Below are positions 2,897 to 63,094 of a stretch of 64,000 nt of DNA, piece after piece (position 1 is the stretch's first letter; each line of letters opens with the position of its first letter). Position numbers and translations under genes: made by a program. Origin of the DNA: a virus. The stretch lies in the IMG/VR virus record IMGVR_UViG_3300042907_001527, positions 1-64,000 of that record; one strand, given 5' to 3'. The notes under the pieces were generated by a model, which did no database searches, had not been told where the DNA came from, and saw only the letters and a program-made list of their open reading frames with translations.

Positions 2897-4018
2897 CTAC
2901 GGTGATGTTAATGAACAAAGTGAGAATCCTCCAGTTTCCTCTCCCGCTGAAAGTAATTGAACTACTTGTCCTGAATTTGTATAGTATCCTGTCATGTTAG
3001 TTGTAACTGGTCCCAATAAAGAATCATAAAATAAGACATTTTGGTCAAAAGTTGAATTGTCACCATATATTGTTATTGTGTTAATACCATTACATGAATC
3101 ATAAGCTGTTGCACCTGTTGAAACTACAAAACTAAATCTAGTTTGTGTTGGAGAAACAGTTGGTGTTACAGTATTGGTTGGTGTTGAAGTTCTAGTAGGT
3201 GTATTGGTTGGTGTTGTAGTATTAGTTGGTGTATTCGTATTTGTTGGTGTTACACTTGGTGTTACACTTGGTGTTGTAGTATTAGTTGGTGTTACAGTTT
3301 GTGTTACGGTATTTGTTGGTGTTACAGTTGGTGTTACAGTATTTGTTGGTGTTACAGTTGGTGTCACACTTTGAGTTGGTGTAGGTGTTGTAATAATAGA
3401 ACAAAGTATGAATCCATCAGTTTCATATCCTGTTGAAAGTAATTGAACTACTTGTCCTGAAATTGAATAGTATCCTGCCATGTTAGTTGTAACTGGTCCT
3501 GATAAAGAATCATAAAAGAACGTATTTTCATCAAAAGTTGCAACATCACCATATATAGTGATTGATGATAACTCATTACAAGCTTGATTATAGGTTGTAC
3601 CAGTTGACACAACAAAACTAAATCTAGTATTTGTTGGTGTTTCAGTATTAGTTGGTGTAACAGTATTAGTCGGTGTAACAGTATTAGTTGGTGTTACAGT
3701 ATTTGTAGGTGTTTCAGTATTAGTTGGTGTTTGAGTTGGCGTTACGGTTGAGGTTGAAGTATTTGTTATAGTAGGTGTTTGTGTTGGTGTAGATGTTGCG
3801 CATAGAATAGGAATTACCACACCATTTAACATTTCATCTCTTGTCAGTCCTAAATAATAAGCAACATTATTTAGGTAAACATTAAAAGGTCCTAACGCAT
3901 TTGAATTTGACGCTAAGCTAACAATATAAGACGTACATCCAGTAACCGTAATTTGTTGTTCAATTTCATTAACACATCCAGGTGCGTTATTAGTAACTAA
4001 TATAGAATATACCGACAT
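2897..4018 (-). CDS. Thr/Pro-rich (mucin-like) putative virion fibre protein with two copies of a ~76-aa Cys-bracketed module
   Basis: TPTNT linkers separating two TRFSFVVSTG...C...GYY...GQVVQL...LCS modules. Confidence 0.8.
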   Translation of the reverse strand: MSVYSILVTNNAPGCVNEIEQQITVTGCTSYIVSLASNSNALGPFNVYLNNVAYYLGLTRDEMLNGVVIPILCATSTPTQTPTITNTSTSTVTPTQTPTNTETPTNTVTPTNTVTPTNTVTPTNTETPTNTRFSFVVSTGTTYNQACNELSSITIYGDVATFDENTFFYDSLSGPVTTNMAGYYSISGQVVQLLSTGYETDGFILCSIITTPTPTQSVTPTVTPTNTVTPTVTPTNTVTQTVTPTNTTTPSVTPSVTPTNTNTPTNTTTPTNTPTRTSTPTNTVTPTVSPTQTRFSFVVSTGATAYDSCNGINTITIYGDNSTFDQNVLFYDSLLGPVTTNMTGYYTNSGQVVQLLSAGEETGGFSLCSLTSP

Positions 4019-4264: not shown

Positions 4265-6319
4265 TTAGTTAATACATACCACTGAAAAATTCCAAGCAGT
4301 ACTTAATATCGGAGCTGTAACAACTACCAAAACGGTTGTAGGTGATGTCGATGATTTGTTGAAAATCATACTACCAGCCCCTGGCCCTGATACGTTTGGA
4401 TATCCTAAGGCATTTAATTGTGCATTATAGGAGGGGTCACCTCTAAATCCTGTGTCAATAACCATATTCCCATTCCAAAAAACTTGAAATTGGTCAGGTA
4501 CAGTATATGCGTTAAAGTTAAAAGTAGTATCACCCGCAGTCAACCCCATCTCAACAGTAATTTGATGAACACCAATACTACCACTACCATTATATGTAAC
4601 ATCACAGTTGGTTTCACCTGTAATAATTGTATATGGTGTTGTAGATGGAGTCGGTGTAACAGTATTAGTTGGTGTAATAGTATTAGTTGGTGTTTTAGTT
4701 ACTGTTGGTGTATTTGTTGGCGTTACAGTATTTGTTGGAGTTTTAGTATTAGTTGGTGTTACTGTAGGAGTTGTTGTTGGTGTTGCGGTATTTGTAGGTG
4801 TTACTGTAGGAGTTGTTGTCGATGTTTCAGTATTTGTTGGTGTAACAGTTGGTGTTTCAGTATTTGTTGGTGTAACAGTTGGCGTTTCAGTATTTGTAGG
4901 TGTTACTGTAGGAGTTGTTGTCGATGTTTCAGTATTTGTTGGTGTAACAGTTGGTGTTTCAGTATTTGTTGGTGTAACAGTTGGCGTTTCAGTATTTGTA
5001 GGTGTTACTGTAGGAGTTGTTGTCGATGTTTCAGTATTTGTTGGTGTAACAGTTGGTGTTTCAGTATTTGTAGGTGTTACTGTAGGAGTTGTTGTCGATG
5101 TTTCAGTATTTGTTGGTGTAACAGTTGGCGTTTCAGTATTTGTAGGTGTTACTGTAGGAGTTGTTGTCGATGTTTCAGTATTTGTTGGTGTAACAGTATT
5201 TGTTGGTGTTTCAGTATTTGTTGGTGTTACAGTATTTGTTGGTGTTTCAGTATTTGTTGGTGTTACAGTATTTGTTGGTGTAACAGTTGGTGTTTCAGTT
5301 GGGGTAGAAGTCACTGTTTCAGTATTAGTCGGTGTAACAGTACTTGTTTGTGTTGGCGTGTTAGTTGGAATTAATGAACAAAGGAAGAATCCTCCATCTT
5401 CTCCTCCTGTTGAAGTTAATTGAACAACTTGACCTGAAATTGAATAATATCCTGTCATGTTAATTGTAACTGGTCCCAATAAAGAATCATAAAATAATAC
5501 ATTTTGGTCAAAAGTTGGATTATCACCATATATTGTTATTGTGTTAATACCATTACATGCATCATAAGCTGTTATACCTGTTGTTACAACAAAAGGAAAT
5601 CTAGTGTGTGTTGGTGTTGGAGTATTTGTTGGAGTTTTAGTGTTTGTTGGAGTATTTGTTGGAGTTTTAGTTACTGTTGGAGTTTGGGTTAAAGTATTGG
5701 TTGGGGTTGAAGTTGGGGTTGAAGTATTGGTTGGGGTTGAAGTTTGGGTTGGGGTTGAAGTTGGGGTTGAAGTTGGGGTTGAAGTTGGGGTTGAAGTTGG
5801 GGTTGAAGTATTGGTTGGAGTTGAAGTATTGGTTGGAGTTGAAGTTTGGGTTGAAGTATTGGTTGGGGTTGAAGTATTAGTTGGTGTAACAGTATTTTCC
5901 GGTGTTTTAGTAGGTGTCGGTGTTAAAGTAGGTGTTTGAGTATTTGTCGGTGTTACAGTAGGTGTTTGAGTATTTGTTGGTGTAACAGTTGGTGTTGGTG
6001 TTTGTGTTGGTATTATAAACTCTTGAATATTAATATTAACAACACAAGACGCCAATTCGATTGTAATTTCAAATGCACAACCATAAAAACAGTCTAGTAT
6101 TTTAAATATACTACACCCATTATCATCCGTTAATTGTAACATTATTTCAGAGGCAGAATCAAATATTGAAGGAATTGTGACATTATAATCGATTATTGGT
6201 GGAACAGTTCCAGAATTAATAGTGCCAAGCAAAGTTTGATTATTACCGTATACATCGGATATGTATATGTTAATTGGGTATGTACCTCCTGATATTTCGG
6301 TTATTCTTACCTGTCTCAT
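4265..6319 (-). CDS. Thr/Pro-rich putative fibre/adhesin protein, paralog A
   Basis: N-terminal ~100 aa nearly identical to paralog B, long TPT linkers, one internal 76-aa module, distinct beta-rich C-terminal domain. Confidence 0.85.
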
Positions 6320-6366
6320 GTTAAATAAATTGTATCATAAACAATAATTAATTTAATAATAATTTC
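5990..6366. repeat. ~375-bp near-identical duplication of 8447-8860
   Basis: 6161-6320 matches 8617-8776 essentially base for base; identity ends at 6366/8860. Confidence 0.95.
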
Positions 6367-6603
6367 AACATCTGTCGTGTCCGCTAAATGTGACAATCCT
6401 GAATCCATAGTCACAAAACATAACAATTTATCAATCAAATGCCAATCTTGGGATAGACTTGTCTTATTCATTAAGTTTAATCCATCTTTTATTTTAAAAT
6501 TAAACGTTGGCTTATAAATATTAAAGAATCCCTTTTCAGAACTATCTTTCCCAATCGACACAACTGAAATACCTAAATCATTTAATTTTTTTGTTAGTTT
6601 CAT
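6316..6603 (-). pseudogene. Chimeric ORF: GT9-family (heptosyltransferase-like) glycosyltransferase fragment fused to a copy of the last 16 codons of the SprB-repeat gene
   Basis: FVTMDSGLSHLA resembles the GT9 DSG..H.A motif; tail [16 protein letters not shown] matches EIIIKLIIVYDTICLT of 8810..10945; in-frame TAG just upstream of the ATG. Confidence 0.7.
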
Positions 6604-6624
6604 CTATTTAGATGACGTATATTT

Positions 6625-8775
6625 TTAACAAAAATCTCCAAAAGTAAAAACTCCACCAACTACTGAACCATAACTAGTGAAATCTGAATAAACTCCGTCA
6701 TCTGCTAGTGTAGTACAATTGGCGTCTGTGTAGATTGCGAGAGCATCATACAAATCACAACTATAGTTATCACATTCAGAACTTATATAGAATGTTCCTC
6801 CTGTTGCATTACAAGCATCTAATGGGTCATTGACATCGTAACCCAATTGAATTTCACAACAAATAGTTATCTCTGATGTATCACAAATAACTAGAGGTGA
6901 AGATAAGGTAACACCAGTAGAACCTGTATAAGGATAATAACATACCGTATATCCAGTAGTTTCATTCCCACTTGTTCCAGTTTCTTGCCCGAAAGGGTAA
7001 CAACATGAGTGATATGAGTATACGGTATCCTTTGGTATGTGTCCTTCAACACATCTAAGACCAGCCTGTGTTTGTGTTACTGTTGGAGTTGATGTGTTTG
7101 TTGTAGTGTTACTTGGAGTCGCCGTCGGAGTTAACCCAATTGTAACTGTTGGTGTTTGAGTATTTGTTGGTGTTACAGTATTTGTAGGTGTTTCAGTTGG
7201 TGTAACAGTATTAGTCGGTGTAACAGTATTTGTAGGTGTTTCAGTGTTAGTTGGTGTTTGAGTATTTGTAGGTGTTTCAGTATTTGTAGGTGTTTCAGTA
7301 TTAGTTGGTGTAACAGTATTAGTTGGTGTTTGAGTATTTGTCGGTGTTACAGTATTTGTAGGTGTTTCAGTATTTGTTGGTGTTACAGTGTTAGTTGGTG
7401 TTGAAGTATTTGTAGGTGTTTCAGTATTAGTTGGAGTAACAGTATTTGTTGGTGTTTCAGTATTAGTTGGTGTTACAGTTGGTGTTTCAGTATTAGTTGG
7501 TGTTTGAGTAGGAGTTAACACTTGTGTTTCAGTTGGGGTAGAAGTTACTGTTACAGTATTAGTCGGTGTAACAGTATTTGTTGATGTTACTGTAGGAGTT
7601 GTTGTCGGTGTTTCAGTGTTAGTTGGTGTTGAAGTATTTGTAGGTGTTACAGTATTTGTAGGTGTTTCAGTATTTGTTGGTGTTACAGTGTTAGTTGGTG
7701 TTGAAGTATTTGTAGGTGTTTCAGTATTAGTTGGAGTAACAGTATTTGTTGGTGTTTCAGTATTAGTTGGTGTTACAGTTGGTGTTTCAGTATTAGTTGG
7801 TGTTTGAGTAGGAGTTAACACTTGTGTTTCAGTTGGGGTAGAAGTTACTGTTACAGTATTAGTCGGTGTAACAGTATTTGTTGATGTTACTGTAGGAGTT
7901 GTTGTCGGTGTTTCAGTGTTAGTTGGTGTTGAAGTATTTGTAGGTGTTTCAGTATTTGTAGGTGTTTCAGTATTTGTTGGTGTTGAAGTATTTGTAGGTG
8001 TTTCAGTATTAGTTGGTGTTTGAGTAGGAGTTAACACTTGTGTTTCAGTTGGGGTAGAAGTTACTGTTTCAGTATTTGTAGGTGTTTCAGTGTTAGTTGG
8101 TGTTGAAGTATTTGTAGGTGTTTCAGTATTAGTTGGTGTTGAAGTATTTGTAGGTGTTACAGTGTTAGTTGGTGTTACAGTATTTGTAGGTGTTTCAGTA
8201 TTTGTAGGTGTTTCAGTGTTAGTTGGTGTTGAAGTATTTGTAGGTGTTTCAGTATTAGTTGGTGTTACTGTTGGTGTTTCAGTATTAGTTGGTGTTTGAG
8301 TAGGAGTTAACACTTGTGTTTCAGTTGGGGTAGAAGTTACTGTTTCAGTATTAGTCGGTGTAACAGTATTTGTTGATGTTACTGTAGGAGTTGTTGTCGG
8401 TGTTTCAGTATTAGTTGGTGTTTCAGTATTTGTAGGTGTTACAGTAGGTGTTGGTGTTTGTGTTGGTATTATGAACTCTTGGATATTAATATTAACAACA
8501 CAAGACTCCAATTCGATTGTAATTTCAAATGCACAACCATAAGCACAATCTAACGTTTTAAATATACTACACCCATTATCATCCGTTAAGTATAACCTTA
8601 TTTCTGGAGCAGAATCAAATATTGAAGGAATTGTGACATTATAATCGATTATTGGTGGAACAGTTCCAGAATTAATAGTGCCAAGCAAAGTTTGATTATT
8701 ACCGTATACATCGGATATGTATATGTTAATTGGGTATGTACCTCCTGATATTTCGGTTATTCTTACCTGTCTCAT
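6625..8775 (-). CDS. Thr/Pro-rich putative fibre/adhesin protein, paralog B (start revised to ATG 8775)
   Basis: [13 protein letters not shown]-terminus shared with paralog A; ~450 aa of TPTNTE repeats; Cys-rich C-terminal domains. Confidence 0.85.
7344..7948. repeat. Exact 300-bp tandem duplication inside paralog B
   Basis: Lines 7381/7681, 7441/7741, 7501/7801 and 7561/7861 are identical. Confidence 0.95.
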
Positions 8776-8828: not shown

Positions 8829-10945
8829 TCATAAACAATAATTAATTTAATAATAATTTCTTGTCCATTTAAAGTATCATTAGTTGGGCTAGTTTGAATA
8901 GTTATTTGATTATTTAAATCGTCAACTGTAATTACACCAATACCAGGTATTGTGTTTAATAAACTAGTAACGGTATCATAATAAAGATTATCACCTGGAA
9001 CAACATTTAAAGACGTTGTTGTAAAAAAAGTTTCGCTTGTTGTCAACCCTAATGGATTAACTGAAACGTTTATTGTAAATGTTGCTGAAACTAAACTACA
9101 ACTTGTATTACCAGAGGTTAAATCGTCAAATCCAACATTTAACATTTGTAATAACCCAAATTTAGTTTGTGCCTCAATAATAAAAGTTTCAGACCCCATG
9201 ACATATGTTTGATATGAAACATATGAAGCATCACAAGTAATTTCTGCGGTTCTTGATAACGAACATCCATTATCATCAATTACGGTTAAGTTATATGTTC
9301 CTCCTGTTAACCCTTGAACAGTAATTTGTTGCGGATTATTGGGCACATTATTAGACCAATCAAATATAAATGGTGGAGTTCCTGATGAAATAAATGCGGT
9401 TAAAGTACCTTCAGAACCTGTACCACAAGAAGTACTATATAAACTATAATCAAGTGGTATACTACTATTAACATAAACTTGAGTTGTTTGAGTACATCCT
9501 GTATTATCCGTAACAGTAATTGTATGTTGTCCTGAAGAAACATTATTAAATGTAATCGCAGATAAAGTACTATTATTTATATTAACTAAACCGTCTAATG
9601 AATAATCAAATGGAGTTGCCCCTCCTTGACTTTTAATAACCGAAATATAACCATTTGCATTATTACATGTGGTTCCTGTAGTATTTGTTGAGATTGTAAA
9701 TGTGTCAGTAGCATATAATGTAACTTCATCTAAATAATAACATCCTGAAGCATCTTGAACCGCAACACTATACGTTCCTGAATATAAATTAGAAAATAAT
9801 TGAGCTGTTTGGTTATTACTAACATTTAAGACGTTTCCATTTGGATATATTAACGTATAAATGTATGGGGAAGCTCCTCCATTAACTAAAACGGTGATTG
9901 ACCCTCCATTACTTGAACATGTTGAGCCTTGTGTATTAATGTTAACCGAGGTTATACCATTTGGTGGCGTTAATGTTGTCCCAGCAACCATAGTACATAA
10001 TGCCGCGTCTGTTACTTGGAAGGAATAATTTCCTGAGGATAATCCAGATATTGTAAATGATTTTGGATATTGAATTAATACCTCTCCTGTAGATGCAGAA
10101 TAATAATATGGTGCGGTTCCTCCTGTAATTTGAATCGTTATTGAACCATCGGAAGAAAAACAAGTTGGAGGTGTTGAGGTAAACGTACCTAATCCAATTG
10201 GTGGGACATTCACAATTGTCTCACTTTTTGTTGTAACACACCCATAATAATCTGTAACACTAACAGAATAAATTCCAGCGGTTAATCCGGTGACAGTTGA
10301 CCCTGTGTTACTTGTATTCCAAAGATATGTGTATGGTGGAGTACCTGTTACTCCTGTAACCATAATTTTACCCATACCAGTTCCTCCACACGATGAATTT
10401 GGAACTACATATAAACCATAATCTAAAGTATCCGAATCTTCAATAATAAAAGTTGGAGTTTGTCCTGTACACCCACCCAAGTCAACCGCCTTAATGTAGT
10501 AAGTTCCAGCGGTTAAACTTCCAAACACAACTGTTGATTGAGATGTTATTGCCGATTGTGAAAATACTCCATCTCCATGAAAAATATAAAATTCAGTTGA
10601 AGAATAATCTGATGTTGATGTTCCAGTTACAAATCCATTATTTTGAGAACATGTTGTTCCCATAACACCGAGAACACTTGCACATACTCCACTTGATACT
10701 GGTATGTTAATATAAAATTCATTATTGGTTGGTAGTGAACTATCAATAGCTCTTACCGAATATGTTGTGGCACTTAATCCTGTTTTTATCGCTGGCTCGG
10801 TAGTGACAATGTTTGGCGATAAAATAGGACTTAACCATTGTGCCGTGTATGGTGGCGTACCACCGCTAAAACTCAAACTGATAGACCCTGAGTTCGTATT
10901 TGAACAATCTCCAGTGACCGCTATATTATAATTAAAAGTTGACAT
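8810..10945 (-). CDS. SprB-repeat-like putative tail fibre/adhesin
   Basis: About 7 repeats of C...G.I.....GGT.PY.Y.W......GL.AG.Y...V.D..GC, the pattern of Bacteroidota SprB repeats. Confidence 0.75.
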   Translation of the reverse strand: MSTFNYNIAVTGDCSNTNSGSISLSFSGGTPPYTAQWLSPILSPNIVTTEPAIKTGLSATTYSVRAIDSSLPTNNEFYINIPVSSGVCASVLGVMGTTCSQNNGFVTGTSTSDYSSTEFYIFHGDGVFSQSAITSQSTVVFGSLTAGTYYIKAVDLGGCTGQTPTFIIEDSDTLDYGLYVVPNSSCGGTGMGKIMVTGVTGTPPYTYLWNTSNTGSTVTGLTAGIYSVSVTDYYGCVTTKSETIVNVPPIGLGTFTSTPPTCFSSDGSITIQITGGTAPYYYSASTGEVLIQYPKSFTISGLSSGNYSFQVTDAALCTMVAGTTLTPPNGITSVNINTQGSTCSSNGGSITVLVNGGASPYIYTLIYPNGNVLNVSNNQTAQLFSNLYSGTYSVAVQDASGCYYLDEVTLYATDTFTISTNTTGTTCNNANGYISVIKSQGGATPFDYSLDGLVNINNSTLSAITFNNVSSGQHTITVTDNTGCTQTTQVYVNSSIPLDYSLYSTSCGTGSEGTLTAFISSGTPPFIFDWSNNVPNNPQQITVQGLTGGTYNLTVIDDNGCSLSRTAEITCDASYVSYQTYVMGSETFIIEAQTKFGLLQMLNVGFDDLTSGNTSCSLVSATFTINVSVNPLGLTTSETFFTTTSLNVVPGDNLYYDTVTSLLNTIPGIGVITVDDLNNQITIQTSPTNDTLNGQEIIIKLIIVYDTICLT

Positions 10946-58628: not shown

Positions 58629-60383
58629 ATGAGTAACGTTAGTTTAGAATCAAAGGCAATGTCCATTCTTGAGTCATATGAGGGTGGCAATAACTATATC
58701 TTGGAATTAAAACGTAAATCACAGGTTAATAGAAAATTTTATCCAACAAGGAGTCAATCAGAATACATTATTAATTTTCACAATAAACAACCAAAAGTCG
58801 CAAAAAAATGGGTAATCCTTGACACATACTTTGCTCAGAAATTAGCCGACGACAAATTATATACCGAAATCCCCCAAAAAGTTTGGGTTGAAAAGTTATT
58901 GGCGGATAAAGAAAAGGCTTACCACATTTGGGGTAAAGTTTTTGAAAATGAAGAACTACACGATTTTTGGTTACCAAAGGCCGCAATTATCAAAGACAAT
59001 TCAGTTAAAGATGTGGTAATTGATTACTCTAAGTATTCACATCGTCCACCACTTGAACACCAAAAAGAAGCAATACAAAAATTGGTTGAGAATAAAAAGT
59101 TTATCCTTGCCGACGATATGGGTCTTGGTAAAACAACATCAACAATTATTGCTGCGTTAGAATCAAACTCAAAAAAAGTATTAATCATTTGTCCTGCAAC
59201 ATTAAAAATTAACTGGAAACGTGAGATTGAAAATTACTCAGACAAATCAATCTACATTGCAGAAAGTAAAAATTTCAGTACCGAAGCTGATTTTGTAATC
59301 ATAAACTACGACATAATTAAAAATTTCCATGACCCTAAAAAGAAAAACGAATCTCAAGTCCTTGCGTCCAACTTTGATTTAGTTATTATTGATGAAGCCC
59401 ATTATATTAAGAATGGTACGGCGCAGAGGACGAAACTAATCAATGATATTGTTAAAAATACCGAAAGACTTTGGTTGTTGACAGGTACACCAATGACATC
59501 ACGACCAATCGATTATTTTAATTTATTAAGTATAATTGATTCTCCTGTTGCTAAGAATTGGATGGCATATGCTATCCGTTATTGTTCTGGATACCAATTT
59601 AATGTTGGGGGAAGAAAGATTTGGAATGTAACAGGGGCGTCAAACTTGGAAGAGTTAAGAGACCGAACCTTAGGTTTAACATTAAGAAGATTAAAAGAAA
59701 ATGTTCTTGATTTACCCGATAAGATTATCACACCTGTTTACCTAAGATTGAAATCAAAATTATATGAAAATGTTATGGGAGAATACTATGATTGGTATGA
59801 CAAGAACCCTGACGAATCCAAATCATTAACCGTTCAATTTTCAAAGTTAACAAAAATTAGACAAATTATTGCCGATGAAAAAATTGAACAAACTATTGAA
59901 CTAGCGGAAAATATTCTTGAGCAAGATAAGAAAGTAATCATTTTCTGTAATTTCACCGATTCGTTAAATAAAATTACAGAACATTTTGGTAAAGCTGCAG
60001 TTAAACTTGATGGTTCTATGTCAAAACCCAACAGACAAAACTCCGTTGACCAATTCCAAGATAACCCCAAGATTAAAGTCTTTGTAGGTAATATTAAAGC
60101 GGCTGGTGTCGGTATAACATTAACTGCTGCTGAAGCTGTTATTATGAATGACTTATCATTCCTTCCATCAGACCACGCCCAAGCTGAAGACCGAGCTTAT
60201 CGTTACGGTCAAAAAAATAACGTTTTGGTTTATTATCCAATATTCGAAAATACAATCGAAGGTATCATCTACGATATCCTAAACAACAAAAAACAAGTCA
60301 TTGCAACTGTAATGGGAGACAACCAACATCCAGCAGATGCTGCAGAAGAAATCCTACAAAGAATTAATGAATTGAGATATTAA
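58629..60383 (+). CDS. SNF2-family (SMARCAL1/HARP-like) helicase
   Basis: LADDMGLGKT, IIDEAHYIKN, LTGTP, GVGITLT, QAEDRAYRYGQ. Confidence 0.95.
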   Translation: MSNVSLESKAMSILESYEGGNNYILELKRKSQVNRKFYPTRSQSEYIINFHNKQPKVAKKWVILDTYFAQKLADDKLYTEIPQKVWVEKLLADKEKAYHIWGKVFENEELHDFWLPKAAIIKDNSVKDVVIDYSKYSHRPPLEHQKEAIQKLVENKKFILADDMGLGKTTSTIIAALESNSKKVLIICPATLKINWKREIENYSDKSIYIAESKNFSTEADFVIINYDIIKNFHDPKKKNESQVLASNFDLVIIDEAHYIKNGTAQRTKLINDIVKNTERLWLLTGTPMTSRPIDYFNLLSIIDSPVAKNWMAYAIRYCSGYQFNVGGRKIWNVTGASNLEELRDRTLGLTLRRLKENVLDLPDKIITPVYLRLKSKLYENVMGEYYDWYDKNPDESKSLTVQFSKLTKIRQIIADEKIEQTIELAENILEQDKKVIIFCNFTDSLNKITEHFGKAAVKLDGSMSKPNRQNSVDQFQDNPKIKVFVGNIKAAGVGITLTAAEAVIMNDLSFLPSDHAQAEDRAYRYGQKNNVLVYYPIFENTIEGIIYDILNNKKQVIATVMGDNQHPADAAEEILQRINELRY

Positions 60384-60424
60384 CAAAGAACGGATTATTT
60401 ATATATAACGGATAATCCAATACT

Positions 60425-61954
60425 ATGAAAAAAACAGAAGAGAAAATCCAACAATTAGAGTTACAGATACTTGAAAATCACGTAACCAAAGAAAAAGAGT
60501 TGTTGATTACAGAAATGAAAAAAATCGGAATAGAGAAACTACCTTATTCCTACTCAGCCCTCAAACAGTTTATTGACCCCGAAACCATGAGTTTCCACTA
60601 CAATAAACATTACAAAGGGTATGTTGATAAACTAAACGACGCATTATCAAAGAAAAAATACGGAGATTTAGATTTAGAAAAAATAATTAAAACAATCAGT
60701 CGTTTTGATAAAACAATTCGAAACAACGCAGGTGGAGCATTTAACCACGCATTGTTTTGGAATATGTTAACTCCCGAACCAAAGAAATTAACAGGTGAAC
60801 TTTATAAAAAGATTACCAAACAGTGGGGAACATTCACAAACTTTAAAAAAGAATTTGAAAAACAAGCCAAAGACCGTTTTGGTTCAGGTTGGGTATGGTT
60901 AATTCTAACCTCTAATAATACTTTAAAGATTATGTCAACTCCAAACCAAGATAATCCATTAATGAATGTGATTGAAGGTGGTGGGTTTCCATTGTTGGGG
61001 TTAGATTTATGGGAACACGCTTATTATTTGAAGTACCGAAATAAAAGAGACGAATACATAACAAACTTTTGGAAAGTTGTTAATTGGGAATTTGTAACTA
61101 AAATGTACGAAATGAGAGTTGAAACCAAATTAACAGAATCTACCAAAATGAAACAAATATTAAGTGAGGGTAAATCTGAAATGTGTTCAAAATCTGATAA
61201 CGAATTTTACAGAATGTTATTTAACGTAAATCAAGATATTAAATGGACTTACATGAATGGTATCAATAGAATCCTTAAAGAAGTTTTTAATGAAAATTAT
61301 ATTGAAGTTCCTCCCACTAATCAATTACCGGGTATTTATGATATTGAGGGACCTGGTAGGTCAGTAATTAATAAACTCAACACAAATTACACGGCGTTTT
61401 GTATTTTATTAAAAGATTTAAATCAAGTTATTACAACTATACCAAATAAAAAACCAATCACTTTTACCGATAAAACTCCCGCAGAACAGAAAAAAGAAGT
61501 TGAGAGATTTGTAAATGCGTTAGGACATTTTAAATATAGAATATTTGATAAACAAAGTTCAACATTTATTAATTTATTAAGAACCTTAACAGAAAAAAAT
61601 AATGCAGGTGATAAAAGAGAACAAATTACGTTATCAATCCTTAGAAGATTTTTTGGTCAAAATGCAAAAGTTGAGTTGGTTGGTGGGTTAGGAAATAAAA
61701 AAGATGCAATTCAAGGTGTTGATTTAGAAATATTTAAAGATGGTAAGTTACACACCGCACAAGTTAAACCATTTAGAGAAATGAAAAAAACTGAAAGTGG
61801 AATTGAATTGGAGGGTACCGCAAGTGTTAAATTATATAAAACGGATTGGATGGTTTTTCAACGAGGAAAGAATGTTTTAGTGTTTGATAAAAAACCAAAA
61901 ATTGTTGGTGGTAATTTTGTTTTTCCACTTGATTCACTTTTATATAGTATATAA
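60425..61954 (+). CDS. Fe/Mn superoxide dismutase (Mn-type signatures) fused to a C-terminal PD-(D/E)XK-like domain
   Basis: LPYSYSAL, HYNKH, NAGGAFNH, FGSGW, NQDNP, DLWEHAYY; C-terminal GDKREQ...GVDL...AQVK. Confidence 0.85.
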   Translation: MKKTEEKIQQLELQILENHVTKEKELLITEMKKIGIEKLPYSYSALKQFIDPETMSFHYNKHYKGYVDKLNDALSKKKYGDLDLEKIIKTISRFDKTIRNNAGGAFNHALFWNMLTPEPKKLTGELYKKITKQWGTFTNFKKEFEKQAKDRFGSGWVWLILTSNNTLKIMSTPNQDNPLMNVIEGGGFPLLGLDLWEHAYYLKYRNKRDEYITNFWKVVNWEFVTKMYEMRVETKLTESTKMKQILSEGKSEMCSKSDNEFYRMLFNVNQDIKWTYMNGINRILKEVFNENYIEVPPTNQLPGIYDIEGPGRSVINKLNTNYTAFCILLKDLNQVITTIPNKKPITFTDKTPAEQKKEVERFVNALGHFKYRIFDKQSSTFINLLRTLTEKNNAGDKREQITLSILRRFFGQNAKVELVGGLGNKKDAIQGVDLEIFKDGKLHTAQVKPFREMKKTESGIELEGTASVKLYKTDWMVFQRGKNVLVFDKKPKIVGGNFVFPLDSLLYSI

Positions 61955-61978: not shown

Positions 61979-63094
61979 ATGTCAGTTATACCAGAACCAG
62001 AAAGGTCAAAAATTTATACGAGAATAAAACATCTATTGGGTGCACCATTAAGAAGTGTTGAAGTCACTGATGAAATGATGGATTCGTTAATGGAATTATC
62101 CATTCAAGATTACGAACAGTATATCTTGAATTGGTTAATTGATAGTCAATGGGTTAACTTGGTTAATCTTAATATGAGTGAAAAATCTGTTGCTCAAGCG
62201 TTAATCACAAGAACAATGGATTTTGAAAAACAATTCTCATATTCATACTCAAAAATTGTGGGACTTCAAGCTGAAGGTCCTTGGGTATTAAAAAAAGATT
62301 ATATTGTTCTTGAAAAAAACAAACAAAACTACGAAATCCCTGCAGGTCGTGAAATAAATGAAGTATTATGGTTTAGTAATCGACCTATTACCGCATTTGG
62401 TATGGGAGGTATTGGTGCTGGAGCAGGTCTTGGTGCAAATGAATCTGGTTTTGCCCAAGTGGGTAATCAGGGTTCTTATTATATGATGTCAGGGTTTGAT
62501 TACTTGATAAGAATGCAAGAAGCGAACATTATAAAAAGAATCCTTGGTGGTTCTTTAACTTATAGAATTACTGCGTTACCTGATGGTAAAAAAGATTTAC
62601 AATTATACAATGCACCTGGTAGTCGATTTAATTGGAGTAATTATAGTCAATACGTTGGTAATGCTGTTTGGTATTGGTACTACGATGTAACACCTGATAG
62701 TAGAGCAGATTGTTTAAAAAATAATCCTGACGTAATTAAAATGCCAAACGAAGTTCCTTTAGAAGAAATGAATTGGGTTGACTTAAATGTTCCCGCACAA
62801 CAATGGGTAAGAAGATGGTTCACCGCATATGTTAAAGAAACGTTAGGTCGAGTTAGAGGAAAATACAGTGGAAATTTAAAGGCTCCTGATTCAGAATTAA
62901 CAATGGACTACACAAGTTTATTAACTGAAGGTAAAGACGAAAAGACAAAGTTGATTGAAGAATTGACAGGGGCTGAAGGTTGGTTAACAAGATTACGTCC
63001 TGAAAAAGTAATGGAAAAAGAAGCGTTACTCGCTGAAAATCTAAATAAACAAATGAAATTCAGAGCAATGCCTCGTCAAATATATGTAATTTAA
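61979..63094 (+). CDS. Neck / head-tail adaptor protein (gp13-like)
   Basis: LGAPLRSVEV, WVRRWFTAYVKETLGRVRGKY, EGKDEK. Confidence 0.8.
   Translation: MSVIPEPERSKIYTRIKHLLGAPLRSVEVTDEMMDSLMELSIQDYEQYILNWLIDSQWVNLVNLNMSEKSVAQALITRTMDFEKQFSYSYSKIVGLQAEGPWVLKKDYIVLEKNKQNYEIPAGREINEVLWFSNRPITAFGMGGIGAGAGLGANESGFAQVGNQGSYYMMSGFDYLIRMQEANIIKRILGGSLTYRITALPDGKKDLQLYNAPGSRFNWSNYSQYVGNAVWYWYYDVTPDSRADCLKNNPDVIKMPNEVPLEEMNWVDLNVPAQQWVRRWFTAYVKETLGRVRGKYSGNLKAPDSELTMDYTSLLTEGKDEKTKLIEELTGAEGWLTRLRPEKVMEKEALLAENLNKQMKFRAMPRQIYVI

Follow-up and report, generated by a model that had tools for sequence, protein, structure and literature searches.

The window analysed here is a 64 000-nucleotide stretch of DNA from a virus, the first 64 kb of a 104-kb viral contig (IMG/VR record IMGVR_UViG_3300042907_001527) that is approximately 28% complete according to CheckV. 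Its source is a large uncultured AT-rich (32% G+C) T4-like myovirus of the jumbo class, and genes for a tail sheath, a ribonucleotide reductase and an SNF2 helicase are present in the window. Among its genes, the one at 60425..61954 joins a manganese-type superoxide dismutase (SOD) in one reading frame to a C-terminal module that constitutes an unnamed and undescribed family, consisting of a novel helical domain and a PD-(D/E)XK nuclease-like domain. The gene comprises the following parts, with residue numbers referring to the encoded protein and pI denoting the isoelectric point.

60425..61954, + strand: the whole open reading frame (ORF), ATG to stop, 509 amino acids, comprising a leader, an Mn-type SOD, a linker, a helical domain and a nuclease-like domain
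60425..60514, + strand: N-terminal leader, residues 1–30, acidic (pI 5.3), with I28-T29-E30 at its end followed by M31; absent from cellular SODs
60530..61111, + strand: Fe/Mn-family superoxide dismutase domain, residues 36–229, with ligands H58, H108, D194 and H198 and the Mn-type residues G103-G104 and Q175
61112..61189, + strand: flexible linker, residues 230–255, beginning at M230 and containing two candidate prohead-protease sites and the invariant C254
61130-61138, + strand: L236-T237-E238/S239, candidate prohead-protease site in the linker
61160-61168, + strand: L246-S247-E248/G249, candidate prohead-protease site in the linker
61190..61594, + strand: helical subdomain, residues 256–390, 135 amino acids; predicted local distance difference test (pLDDT) score of 96 when modelled alone with AlphaFold2
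61595..61951, + strand: PD-(D/E)XK nuclease-like domain, residues 391–509, assigned from fold matches and family conservation

The SOD half is intact, as the initial annotation of this DNA had proposed from the letters alone. Both Pfam domains were found, Sod_Fe_N (PF00081) at residues 36–115 (E value 1.9e-22; 80.0 bits against a cut-off of 27) and Sod_Fe_C (PF02777) at residues 123–226 (E 1.2e-39; 134.9 bits against a cut-off of 20.9), together with all four metal ligands and the GG and NQD signatures. The closest solved structures in the PDB are Mn-SODs, of which 6gsc, 5a9g and 5n56 are the nearest; the top match, 6gsc (E 9.5e-59, residues 38–229), has ligand motifs with which H58, H108, D194 and H198 align. 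The top NCBIfam match is SOD [Mn], under its equivalog cut-off. The two signatures and the matches to Mn enzymes suggest an Mn or cambialistic metal type. Since the alignment of solved SODs begins only at residues 31–38, the first 30–35 residues are considered to be an added leader. The SOD half shares both Pfam domains, the four ligands, the Mn-type signatures and strongly purifying selection (ratio of nonsynonymous to synonymous substitution rates, dN/dS, of 0.02–0.07 among close relatives) with bacterial Mn-SODs such as 6gsc and with stand-alone phage SODs; it differs from them in the leader of 30–35 residues, a basic predicted pI and the 280 amino acids that follow in frame at the C-terminus. 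Stand-alone SOD genes are found in several large phages, and the phage records of the annotated collection match the SOD part of the fusion only: tblastn against annotated phage genomes returned matches to this half alone, and a megablast search of 20 kb of the window against them returned no match. The earlier statement that no SOD–nuclease fusion had been described stands in part, in that a literature search found nothing relevant; a 501-residue relative is nevertheless present in UniProt/BFVD, where it is named only 'superoxide dismutase'.

The module that follows the linker comprises 255 residues in a helical and a nuclease-like domain. Residues 231–509 match no Pfam, PHROG, NCBIfam or PADLOC family, and sequence and profile searches of the module against PDB chains gave noise only. 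Below threshold, Mrr_cat_2 and RE_EcoO109I appeared with an E value of 0.0045, each in one of 56 family members, and NucC with an E value of 1.1. An exhaustive search extended the family to 154 clusters at 50% identity, from jumbo phages up to phages of 735 kb. In an alignment of 56 diverse module sequences, which have diverged to 20–25% identity, four residues (G395, D427, D433 and K448) do not vary and three more (E399, G431 and Q446) reach at least 90% conservation; the C-terminal E, GVD and QVK motifs noticed by the initial annotation are exactly these conserved residues. The AlphaFold2 model calculated from this alignment has a pLDDT of 93.6. Compared with VIA-align, residues 163–279 of the model match the Holliday-junction resolvase Hjc (2wcw; Z 7.7, root-mean-square deviation 3.5 over 100 residues) and the homing endonuclease I-Ssp6803I (2ost; Z 7.1). 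I-Ssp6803I is also the top Foldseek match of the module (E 2.8e-3, probability 1.0), followed among the structure matches by NhoI, HhaI, DpnI, PvuII and other proteins of the restriction-endonuclease fold. Nearly all of the best 44 VIA-align rows are named nucleases of this fold, spanning the whole domain, and in a protein-language-model search the nearest named clusters, RE_MjaI, Mrr_cat, RE_TaqI and Hjc, are those of the restriction-endonuclease clan. No recognizable solved relative was obtained for the helical subdomain, for which the best VIA-align Z was 4.5 and Foldseek gave only E values above 0.4.

On the model, the conserved Glu lies in helix 1 (model residues 149–183), the Asp at the start of strand 2 (204–208) and Q-x-K in strand 3 (211–219), with 12 residues between D433 and Q446. 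The restriction-endonuclease-like PD-(D/E)XK fold proposed earlier for the C-terminal part, with a conserved E...D...QxK, is thus borne out by modelling and fold comparison. The C-terminal domain is a predicted nuclease-like PD-(D/E)XK member with E399, D433 and Q446-x-K448 in canonical positions. The Q-x-K variant is found in Mrr-like enzymes. The key residues of the nuclease-like domain are encoded as follows.

61619-61621, + strand: E399
61703-61705, + strand: D427
61721-61723, + strand: D433
61760-61762, + strand: Q446
61766-61768, + strand: K448

The module has the core fold of Hjc, I-Ssp6803I and Mrr-type nucleases over about 115 residues, as well as the arrangement E...D-x12-Q-x-K in helix 1 and strands 2 and 3. 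It differs from them in the lack of a significant Pfam, NCBIfam, PADLOC or PHROG sequence match, in an extra invariant Asp (D427), in an all-beta extension after strand 3 where these nucleases usually have a helix and in the novel 135-residue helical domain ahead of the core.

The same gene was examined in 89 related IMG/VR loci, the homologues having 34–98% module identity. In 89 of 89 loci the SOD and the module lie in one uninterrupted frame and the fusion gene is located between the SNF2 helicase gene and the Ad2-like head–tail adaptor gene. The comparison of fused and split forms that the initial annotation had called for therefore gave no stop or frameshift between the domains in any locus, and the neck gene that it placed beside the fusion is the adaptor gene (PHROG 211, head–tail adaptor Ad2, E 2e-10). 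The neighbouring genes in the window are the following.

58629..60383, + strand: SNF2-family helicase gene, upstream neighbour, recognized by Pfam and PHROG; syntenic in all related loci
61979..63094, + strand: head–tail adaptor (Ad2-like) gene, downstream neighbour, PHROG 211 (E 2e-10), carrying a TATTTAT motif of its own; synteny kept in all related loci

The constant position beside the adaptor gene raises an alternative, namely that the module is a non-catalytic DNA-binding or DNA-end-binding accessory of the head or neck, like a DNA-end protector, whether packaged or not. The PD-(D/E)XK fold is often reused for binding, and a binding protein would avoid the problem of self-damage posed by a packaged active nuclease. 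We consider this alternative improbable: all the catalytic residues are conserved, completely or almost so, at a family identity of 20–25%, which is unusual for a domain that has lost catalysis, and neither a PHROG or Pfam match to head-completion or end-protector families nor any such protein among the BFVD structure matches was obtained.

The module also occurs without the SOD. A sister clade (loci L109–L115), whose SNF2 is about 70% identical, has at the corresponding locus a 292-residue gene consisting of leader and module, and no SOD is encoded anywhere in the 282-kb, 96%-complete genome of this clade. A second SOD-less cluster (P0122, 287 residues) lies on contigs of up to 46 kb, and stand-alone module genes are also present in huge phages of 635 and 735 kb. 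Only clusters on long contigs (P0122 and P0130) and loci L109–L115 were accepted as SOD-less forms. Many other 'stand-alone' homologues of about 280 residues were rejected as truncated calls of fusions on very short contigs; the P0126 cluster, for example, also contains a 512-residue member, and a locus search with P0125 found no locus. Because the SOD-less module occupies the same locus in the sister clade and has stand-alone members in huge phages, the comparison identifies the module as the older, self-sufficient unit and the SOD as an addition to it.

A further property of the module is its variability. In loci L053–L082 the SOD half is 81–88%, SNF2 81–88% and Ad2 78–80% identical to the window, whereas the module is only 36–40% identical, the drop being abrupt near residue 240. 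With similar flanks, the module of L038 is 65% identical to that of the window; in L102, with more distant flanks (SNF2 79%, adaptor 74%), it is 53% identical. The module has thus diverged out of step with the genomes, which implies exchange of alleles in addition to weaker constraint, and these comparisons indicate a hypervariable cassette. All parts of the fusion are under purifying selection; among close relatives the two module domains, with dN/dS of 0.07–0.32, evolve several-fold faster than the SOD. Positive selection on the whole domain was considered and not seen (dN/dS below 0.35), and relaxed constraint with allele exchange explains the hypervariability better. The T4 internal proteins are a highly diverse anti-defence set that has only the targeting sequence in common (PMC3012670), and by analogy the cassette behaviour of the module fits the diversity reported for them.

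An exchangeable cassette with a sharp boundary, whose top Foldseek match is a homing endonuclease and one of whose huge-phage homologues has a DNA polymerase B fragment as its neighbour and an HNH gene close by, could also be read as a homing-type or selfish nuclease attached to the 3′ end of the SOD gene and spreading by cutting alleles that lack it. The initial annotation had offered such a nuclease, hitch-hiking on an auxiliary gene, as one of its two explanations. We regard it as very improbable. The module was at the same site in 96 of the 96 loci examined, with no empty site seen, and it is the SOD, not the nuclease module, that is optional; the module is under purifying selection at the dN/dS values given above, and its N-terminal leader carries conserved protease-type sites that would be of no use to a homing enzyme. 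In the 635-kb huge phage (L084), the stand-alone module gene (5770-6525) abuts a 473-residue DNA polymerase B fragment (6518-7942, − strand), and an HNH endonuclease gene lies nearby (3103-3576, − strand), with no second polymerase fragment adjoining. The two huge-phage neighbourhoods of the module, with their PhoH, radical SAM, PolB-fragment and HNH genes, revealed no consistent partner.

The leader and linker carry four I/L-x-E motifs, at residues 15–17 (ILE), 28–30 (ITE), 236–238 (LTE) and 246–248 (LSE), in agreement with what had been read from the sequence earlier. The last three persist in all relatives, more than is expected by chance. Conservation of such motifs was counted over the 509 residues of 50 distinct fusion sequences, in which just six [ILV]-x-E triplets are retained by 90% or more of the sequences and only three, L195-W-E197, L236-x-E238 and L246-x-E248, in every clade. 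Of these three, L195-W-E197 belongs to the buried active site of the SOD, and the linker contains the other two. Within the linker (residues 230–255) the sole invariant residues are E238, E248 and C254, with L, I or V always at P3. An [IL]-x-E of the leader directly precedes the (M/A)KK start of the SOD in 50 of 50 fusions, when a two-residue alignment gap is allowed, and SOD fusions that are farther removed, with module identities as low as 28%, also have an [IL]-x-E within about 15 residues of the aligned module start. The first 20 residues after position 230 are of low confidence in the AlphaFold2 model (pLDDT 51–60). In alignments the linker corresponds to the leader at the N-terminus of SOD-less homologues, M230 falling approximately at their start codons, and thus each cargo part is preceded by a leader-like segment ending in [IL]-x-E. 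As a separate observation, C254 (61184-61186) is a single Cys at the module start that is shared without exception by the 50 distinct fusions and by the less distant stand-alone homologues, in an S-x-x-C-S/D context. Other N-terminal partners without a Pfam match are fused to the same module in P0214 (583 residues) and P0222 (1109 residues); their junctions keep an internal start-like Met-Lys-Lys peptide ending in (I/L/F)-x-E, which looks like read-through from an upstream gene into a stand-alone one.

The starts of the stand-alone proteins resemble capsid-targeting sequences (CTSs). Many begin with a peptide of 9–10 residues, MKKF(S/T)L(I/L)xE, and one huge-phage member begins MKKFTEYIKE. An [IL]-x-E with its Glu at positions 8–11 occurs in 18 of 63 stand-alone representatives, compared with a mean of 3.3 at other offsets, and in 4 of the 83 ORFs of the contig itself. 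The CTS of T4 is MKTYQEFIAE (PMC8442874), in which the main determinants of targeting are positions 4 and 7, whereas processing is governed by positions 8 and 10 (PMC9026906). The predicted mature products of the fusion are basic, with pI values of 9.5 and 9.4 (range about 9.4–9.5), and the leader is acidic; the T4 internal proteins are likewise highly basic (PMC8442874).

It could be argued instead that the fusion is never processed and acts in the cytoplasm of the infected cell as one bifunctional polypeptide, in roles such as the handling of DNA under oxidative stress or the breakdown of host DNA. Nucleases of the Hjc and I-Ssp6803I types function as oligomers, and Fe/Mn SODs form dimers or tetramers, so that the SOD dimer or tetramer might serve as a scaffold for the nuclease; the conserved [IL]-x-E motifs would then be structural or interaction features of leader and linker. 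The strict retention of the fusion in 89 loci suits a joint function, and packaging, on which the competing explanation depends, is deduced from sequence. Nevertheless, we consider an unprocessed enzyme unlikely, although it is the most credible of the alternatives. The halves evolve independently (module 36–40% identity while the SOD has 81–88%), the module works without the SOD in the sister clade and in huge phages, and the invariant linker residues are only two Glu (with L/I/V at P3) and one Cys in a low-confidence segment, for which reason a short linear motif is the simpler explanation.

A protease that could recognize such motifs is encoded by the phage group. Peptidase_S77, the T4 gp21 family, was detected (E about 1e-23) in five fusion-bearing relatives, one of which is a 326-kb, 100%-complete genome and another of which has SOD and SNF2 proteins about 94–96% identical to those of the window; it is also encoded by the SOD-less sister clade. 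In the five relatives a gp23-family major capsid protein (E 1e-62) is encoded a few kilobases from the protease gene. Its I-N-E/A site aligns with L-T-E65/A66 of a Tequatrovirus gp23, the position where T4 gp23 is cut, and this conserved gp23-type site supports the view that cleavage follows the same rule in these phages. The gp23-like capsid protein (about 600 residues; L094:505-2307, with relatives in L090–L093) has its closest cultured match in Microcystis phage Mel-JY01, at 42% identity.

The timing of expression may be indicated by a TATTTAT motif. The presence of this motif upstream of the fusion gene, inside an inverted repeat GGATTAT/ATAATCC, had been pointed out in the initial annotation and was confirmed by sequence. 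The corresponding features are listed below.

60392..60418, + strand: inverted repeat with 7-bp arms, GGATTAT (60392-60398) and ATAATCC (60412-60418), enclosing TATTTAT
60396-60402, + strand: TATTTAT promoter-like motif at −29, i.e. 29 nucleotides before the ATG
Starts at 4018, 14837, 23589, 25996, 35314, 48977, 52507, 56703 and 58573, − strand: genes preceded by TATTTAT within 60 nucleotides
Starts at 60425 and 61979, + strand: genes preceded by TATTTAT within 60 nucleotides

TATTTAT lies upstream of the fusion gene in 45 of 46 distinct relatives, and the inverted repeat encloses it in 38 of 46 distinct upstream regions, with compensatory changes of the arms between clades (L001–L108). The repeat could serve as a palindrome bound by a regulator, or form a hairpin, in RNA or DNA, that overlaps a late promoter. 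The arm pairs seen include GGATTAT/ATAATCC, GAGTTATTT/AAATAACTC, GCTTATTT/AAATAAGC and CGGCTTATT/AATAAGCCG. Within the window the motif occurs no more than 60 nucleotides upstream of 11 of 37 genes, compared with about 2% of genes expected from its overall density of 0.33 per kb per strand. Its carriers include the sheath and adaptor genes, and none was found upstream of the ribonucleotide reductase or SNF2 helicase genes. TATTTAT is accordingly a candidate late-promoter element of the phage group. Since it is common to the fusion, sheath and adaptor genes, late co-expression with structural genes is suggested.

These observations bear on the other explanation put forward in the initial annotation, that of a capsid-packaged polyprotein matured by proteolysis, and it is partly supported by them. 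The idea gains real, if sequence-derived, comparative support because the linker sites are invariant, stand-alone members have CTS-like starts, a gp21-like protease and a gp23-type site are present in the phage group and the gene carries a late-type motif. We infer the late timing, the packaging, the cleavage, the nuclease activity and its target, and give about an even chance to the explanation that the fusion is a late precursor packaged in the prohead and cut by a gp21-like protease into a SOD and a nuclease-like protein, both delivered on infection. The precursor would enter the prohead in the manner of the T4 internal proteins. The gp21-type prohead protease would cut after Glu at [IL]-x-E, at E30 in the leader and at E238 and/or E248 in the linker, to yield a SOD of about 25 kDa and a nuclease-like protein of about 30 kDa, both basic. 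These products would be retained inside the capsid and injected along with the DNA. The SOD could limit oxidative damage, either in the particle or at the onset of infection; the nuclease-like module, older and hypervariable, could take part in an arms race by acting on nucleic acid once the cell has just been infected. The broader proposal, that freshwater jumbo T4-like phages load a SOD and a hypervariable nuclease of a new family by T4-style targeting and processing and inject both with the genome, is more tentative and in our judgement falls somewhat short of an even chance.

The fusion resembles the T4 internal proteins IPI, IPII, IPIII and Alt in several respects, including a short peptide at the N-terminus with [IL]-x-E as its last residues, genes in the phage group for a protease of the gp21 family and a capsid protein of the gp23 family, basic products (predicted here), hypervariable cargo behind a conserved leader and an apparently late gene (PMC3012670, PMC9026906, PMC8442874). 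It differs from them in having no sequence similarity to any internal protein, in a cargo that is a two-domain nuclease-like module with, in one clade, a SOD, and in a 30-residue leader and further internal sites. Engineered T4 CTS fusions of staphylococcal nuclease, EcoRI and other enzymes have shown in the laboratory that a CTS can bring a nuclease or another enzyme into a T4-type capsid, have it cut by gp21 and carry it into the host (PMC3012670, PMC9026906). The fusion described here would be a natural counterpart of these artificial ones. Its components are of known kinds (an Mn-SOD, a PD-(D/E)XK fold and T4-type targeting and processing), and for a natural SOD joined to such a module no description was found in the literature. 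The cassette hypervariability, the invariant linker sites, the CTS-like stand-alone starts and the gp21/gp23 context are new.

Several points weigh against packaging and cleavage. The leader has 30 residues, compared with 10–19 in T4 propeptides. The [IL]-x-E motif is short and lies in a protein rich in Glu, Leu and Ile, and the related sequences in which it is conserved are not independent samples; other stand-alone subfamilies start differently (e.g. MKENLV.Y), without the motif. The protease gene is absent from the window's own contig, which is approximately 28% complete, and is presumed from the relatives. The Glu-specificity of the gp21 homologue is likewise presumed, and gp21 relatives of phiKZ and SPN3US use other motifs (PMC9026906). 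With respect to the nuclease, the fold-match scores are moderate (top Z 7.7) and no Pfam nuclease family is above threshold. A packaged active nuclease must spare the phage's own DNA; we identified no means of doing so, DNA modification being one possibility. Finally, no cultured phage with the C-terminal module was found among annotated phage genomes or in the homologue searches.

Injected capsid proteins are the first move of a phage in infection, and to our knowledge few have been described other than in T4, the phiKZ group and N4. If the proposal is correct, the combination of a CTS-like start, a gp21-like protease and hypervariable cargo would provide a sequence signature for finding injected effectors in uncultured phages. 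The fusion would contain the first natural packaged SOD in a phage, an auxiliary metabolic enzyme recruited into a virion-delivery precursor, and phage SODs would have to be reread, from helpers in late infection to components of the particle or of early infection. The module would represent a hitherto unseen class of nuclease effectors delivered by injection, and the fast turnover of its alleles would be the mark of an arms race; the study in addition defines a widespread unnamed family of phage nuclease-like proteins.

Two further features of the SOD-less clade were noted at L111. An extra 376-residue gene (8892-10022, + strand), unrelated to the module by profile comparison, lies between the module and adaptor genes. 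Between homologues of the 174-residue and 347-residue genes of the window are two tandem paralogous genes of 127 residues each (4844-5227 and 5259-5642, − strand), both of whose products begin with the capsid-targeting-like MKIIITE and are possible candidates for internal proteins.

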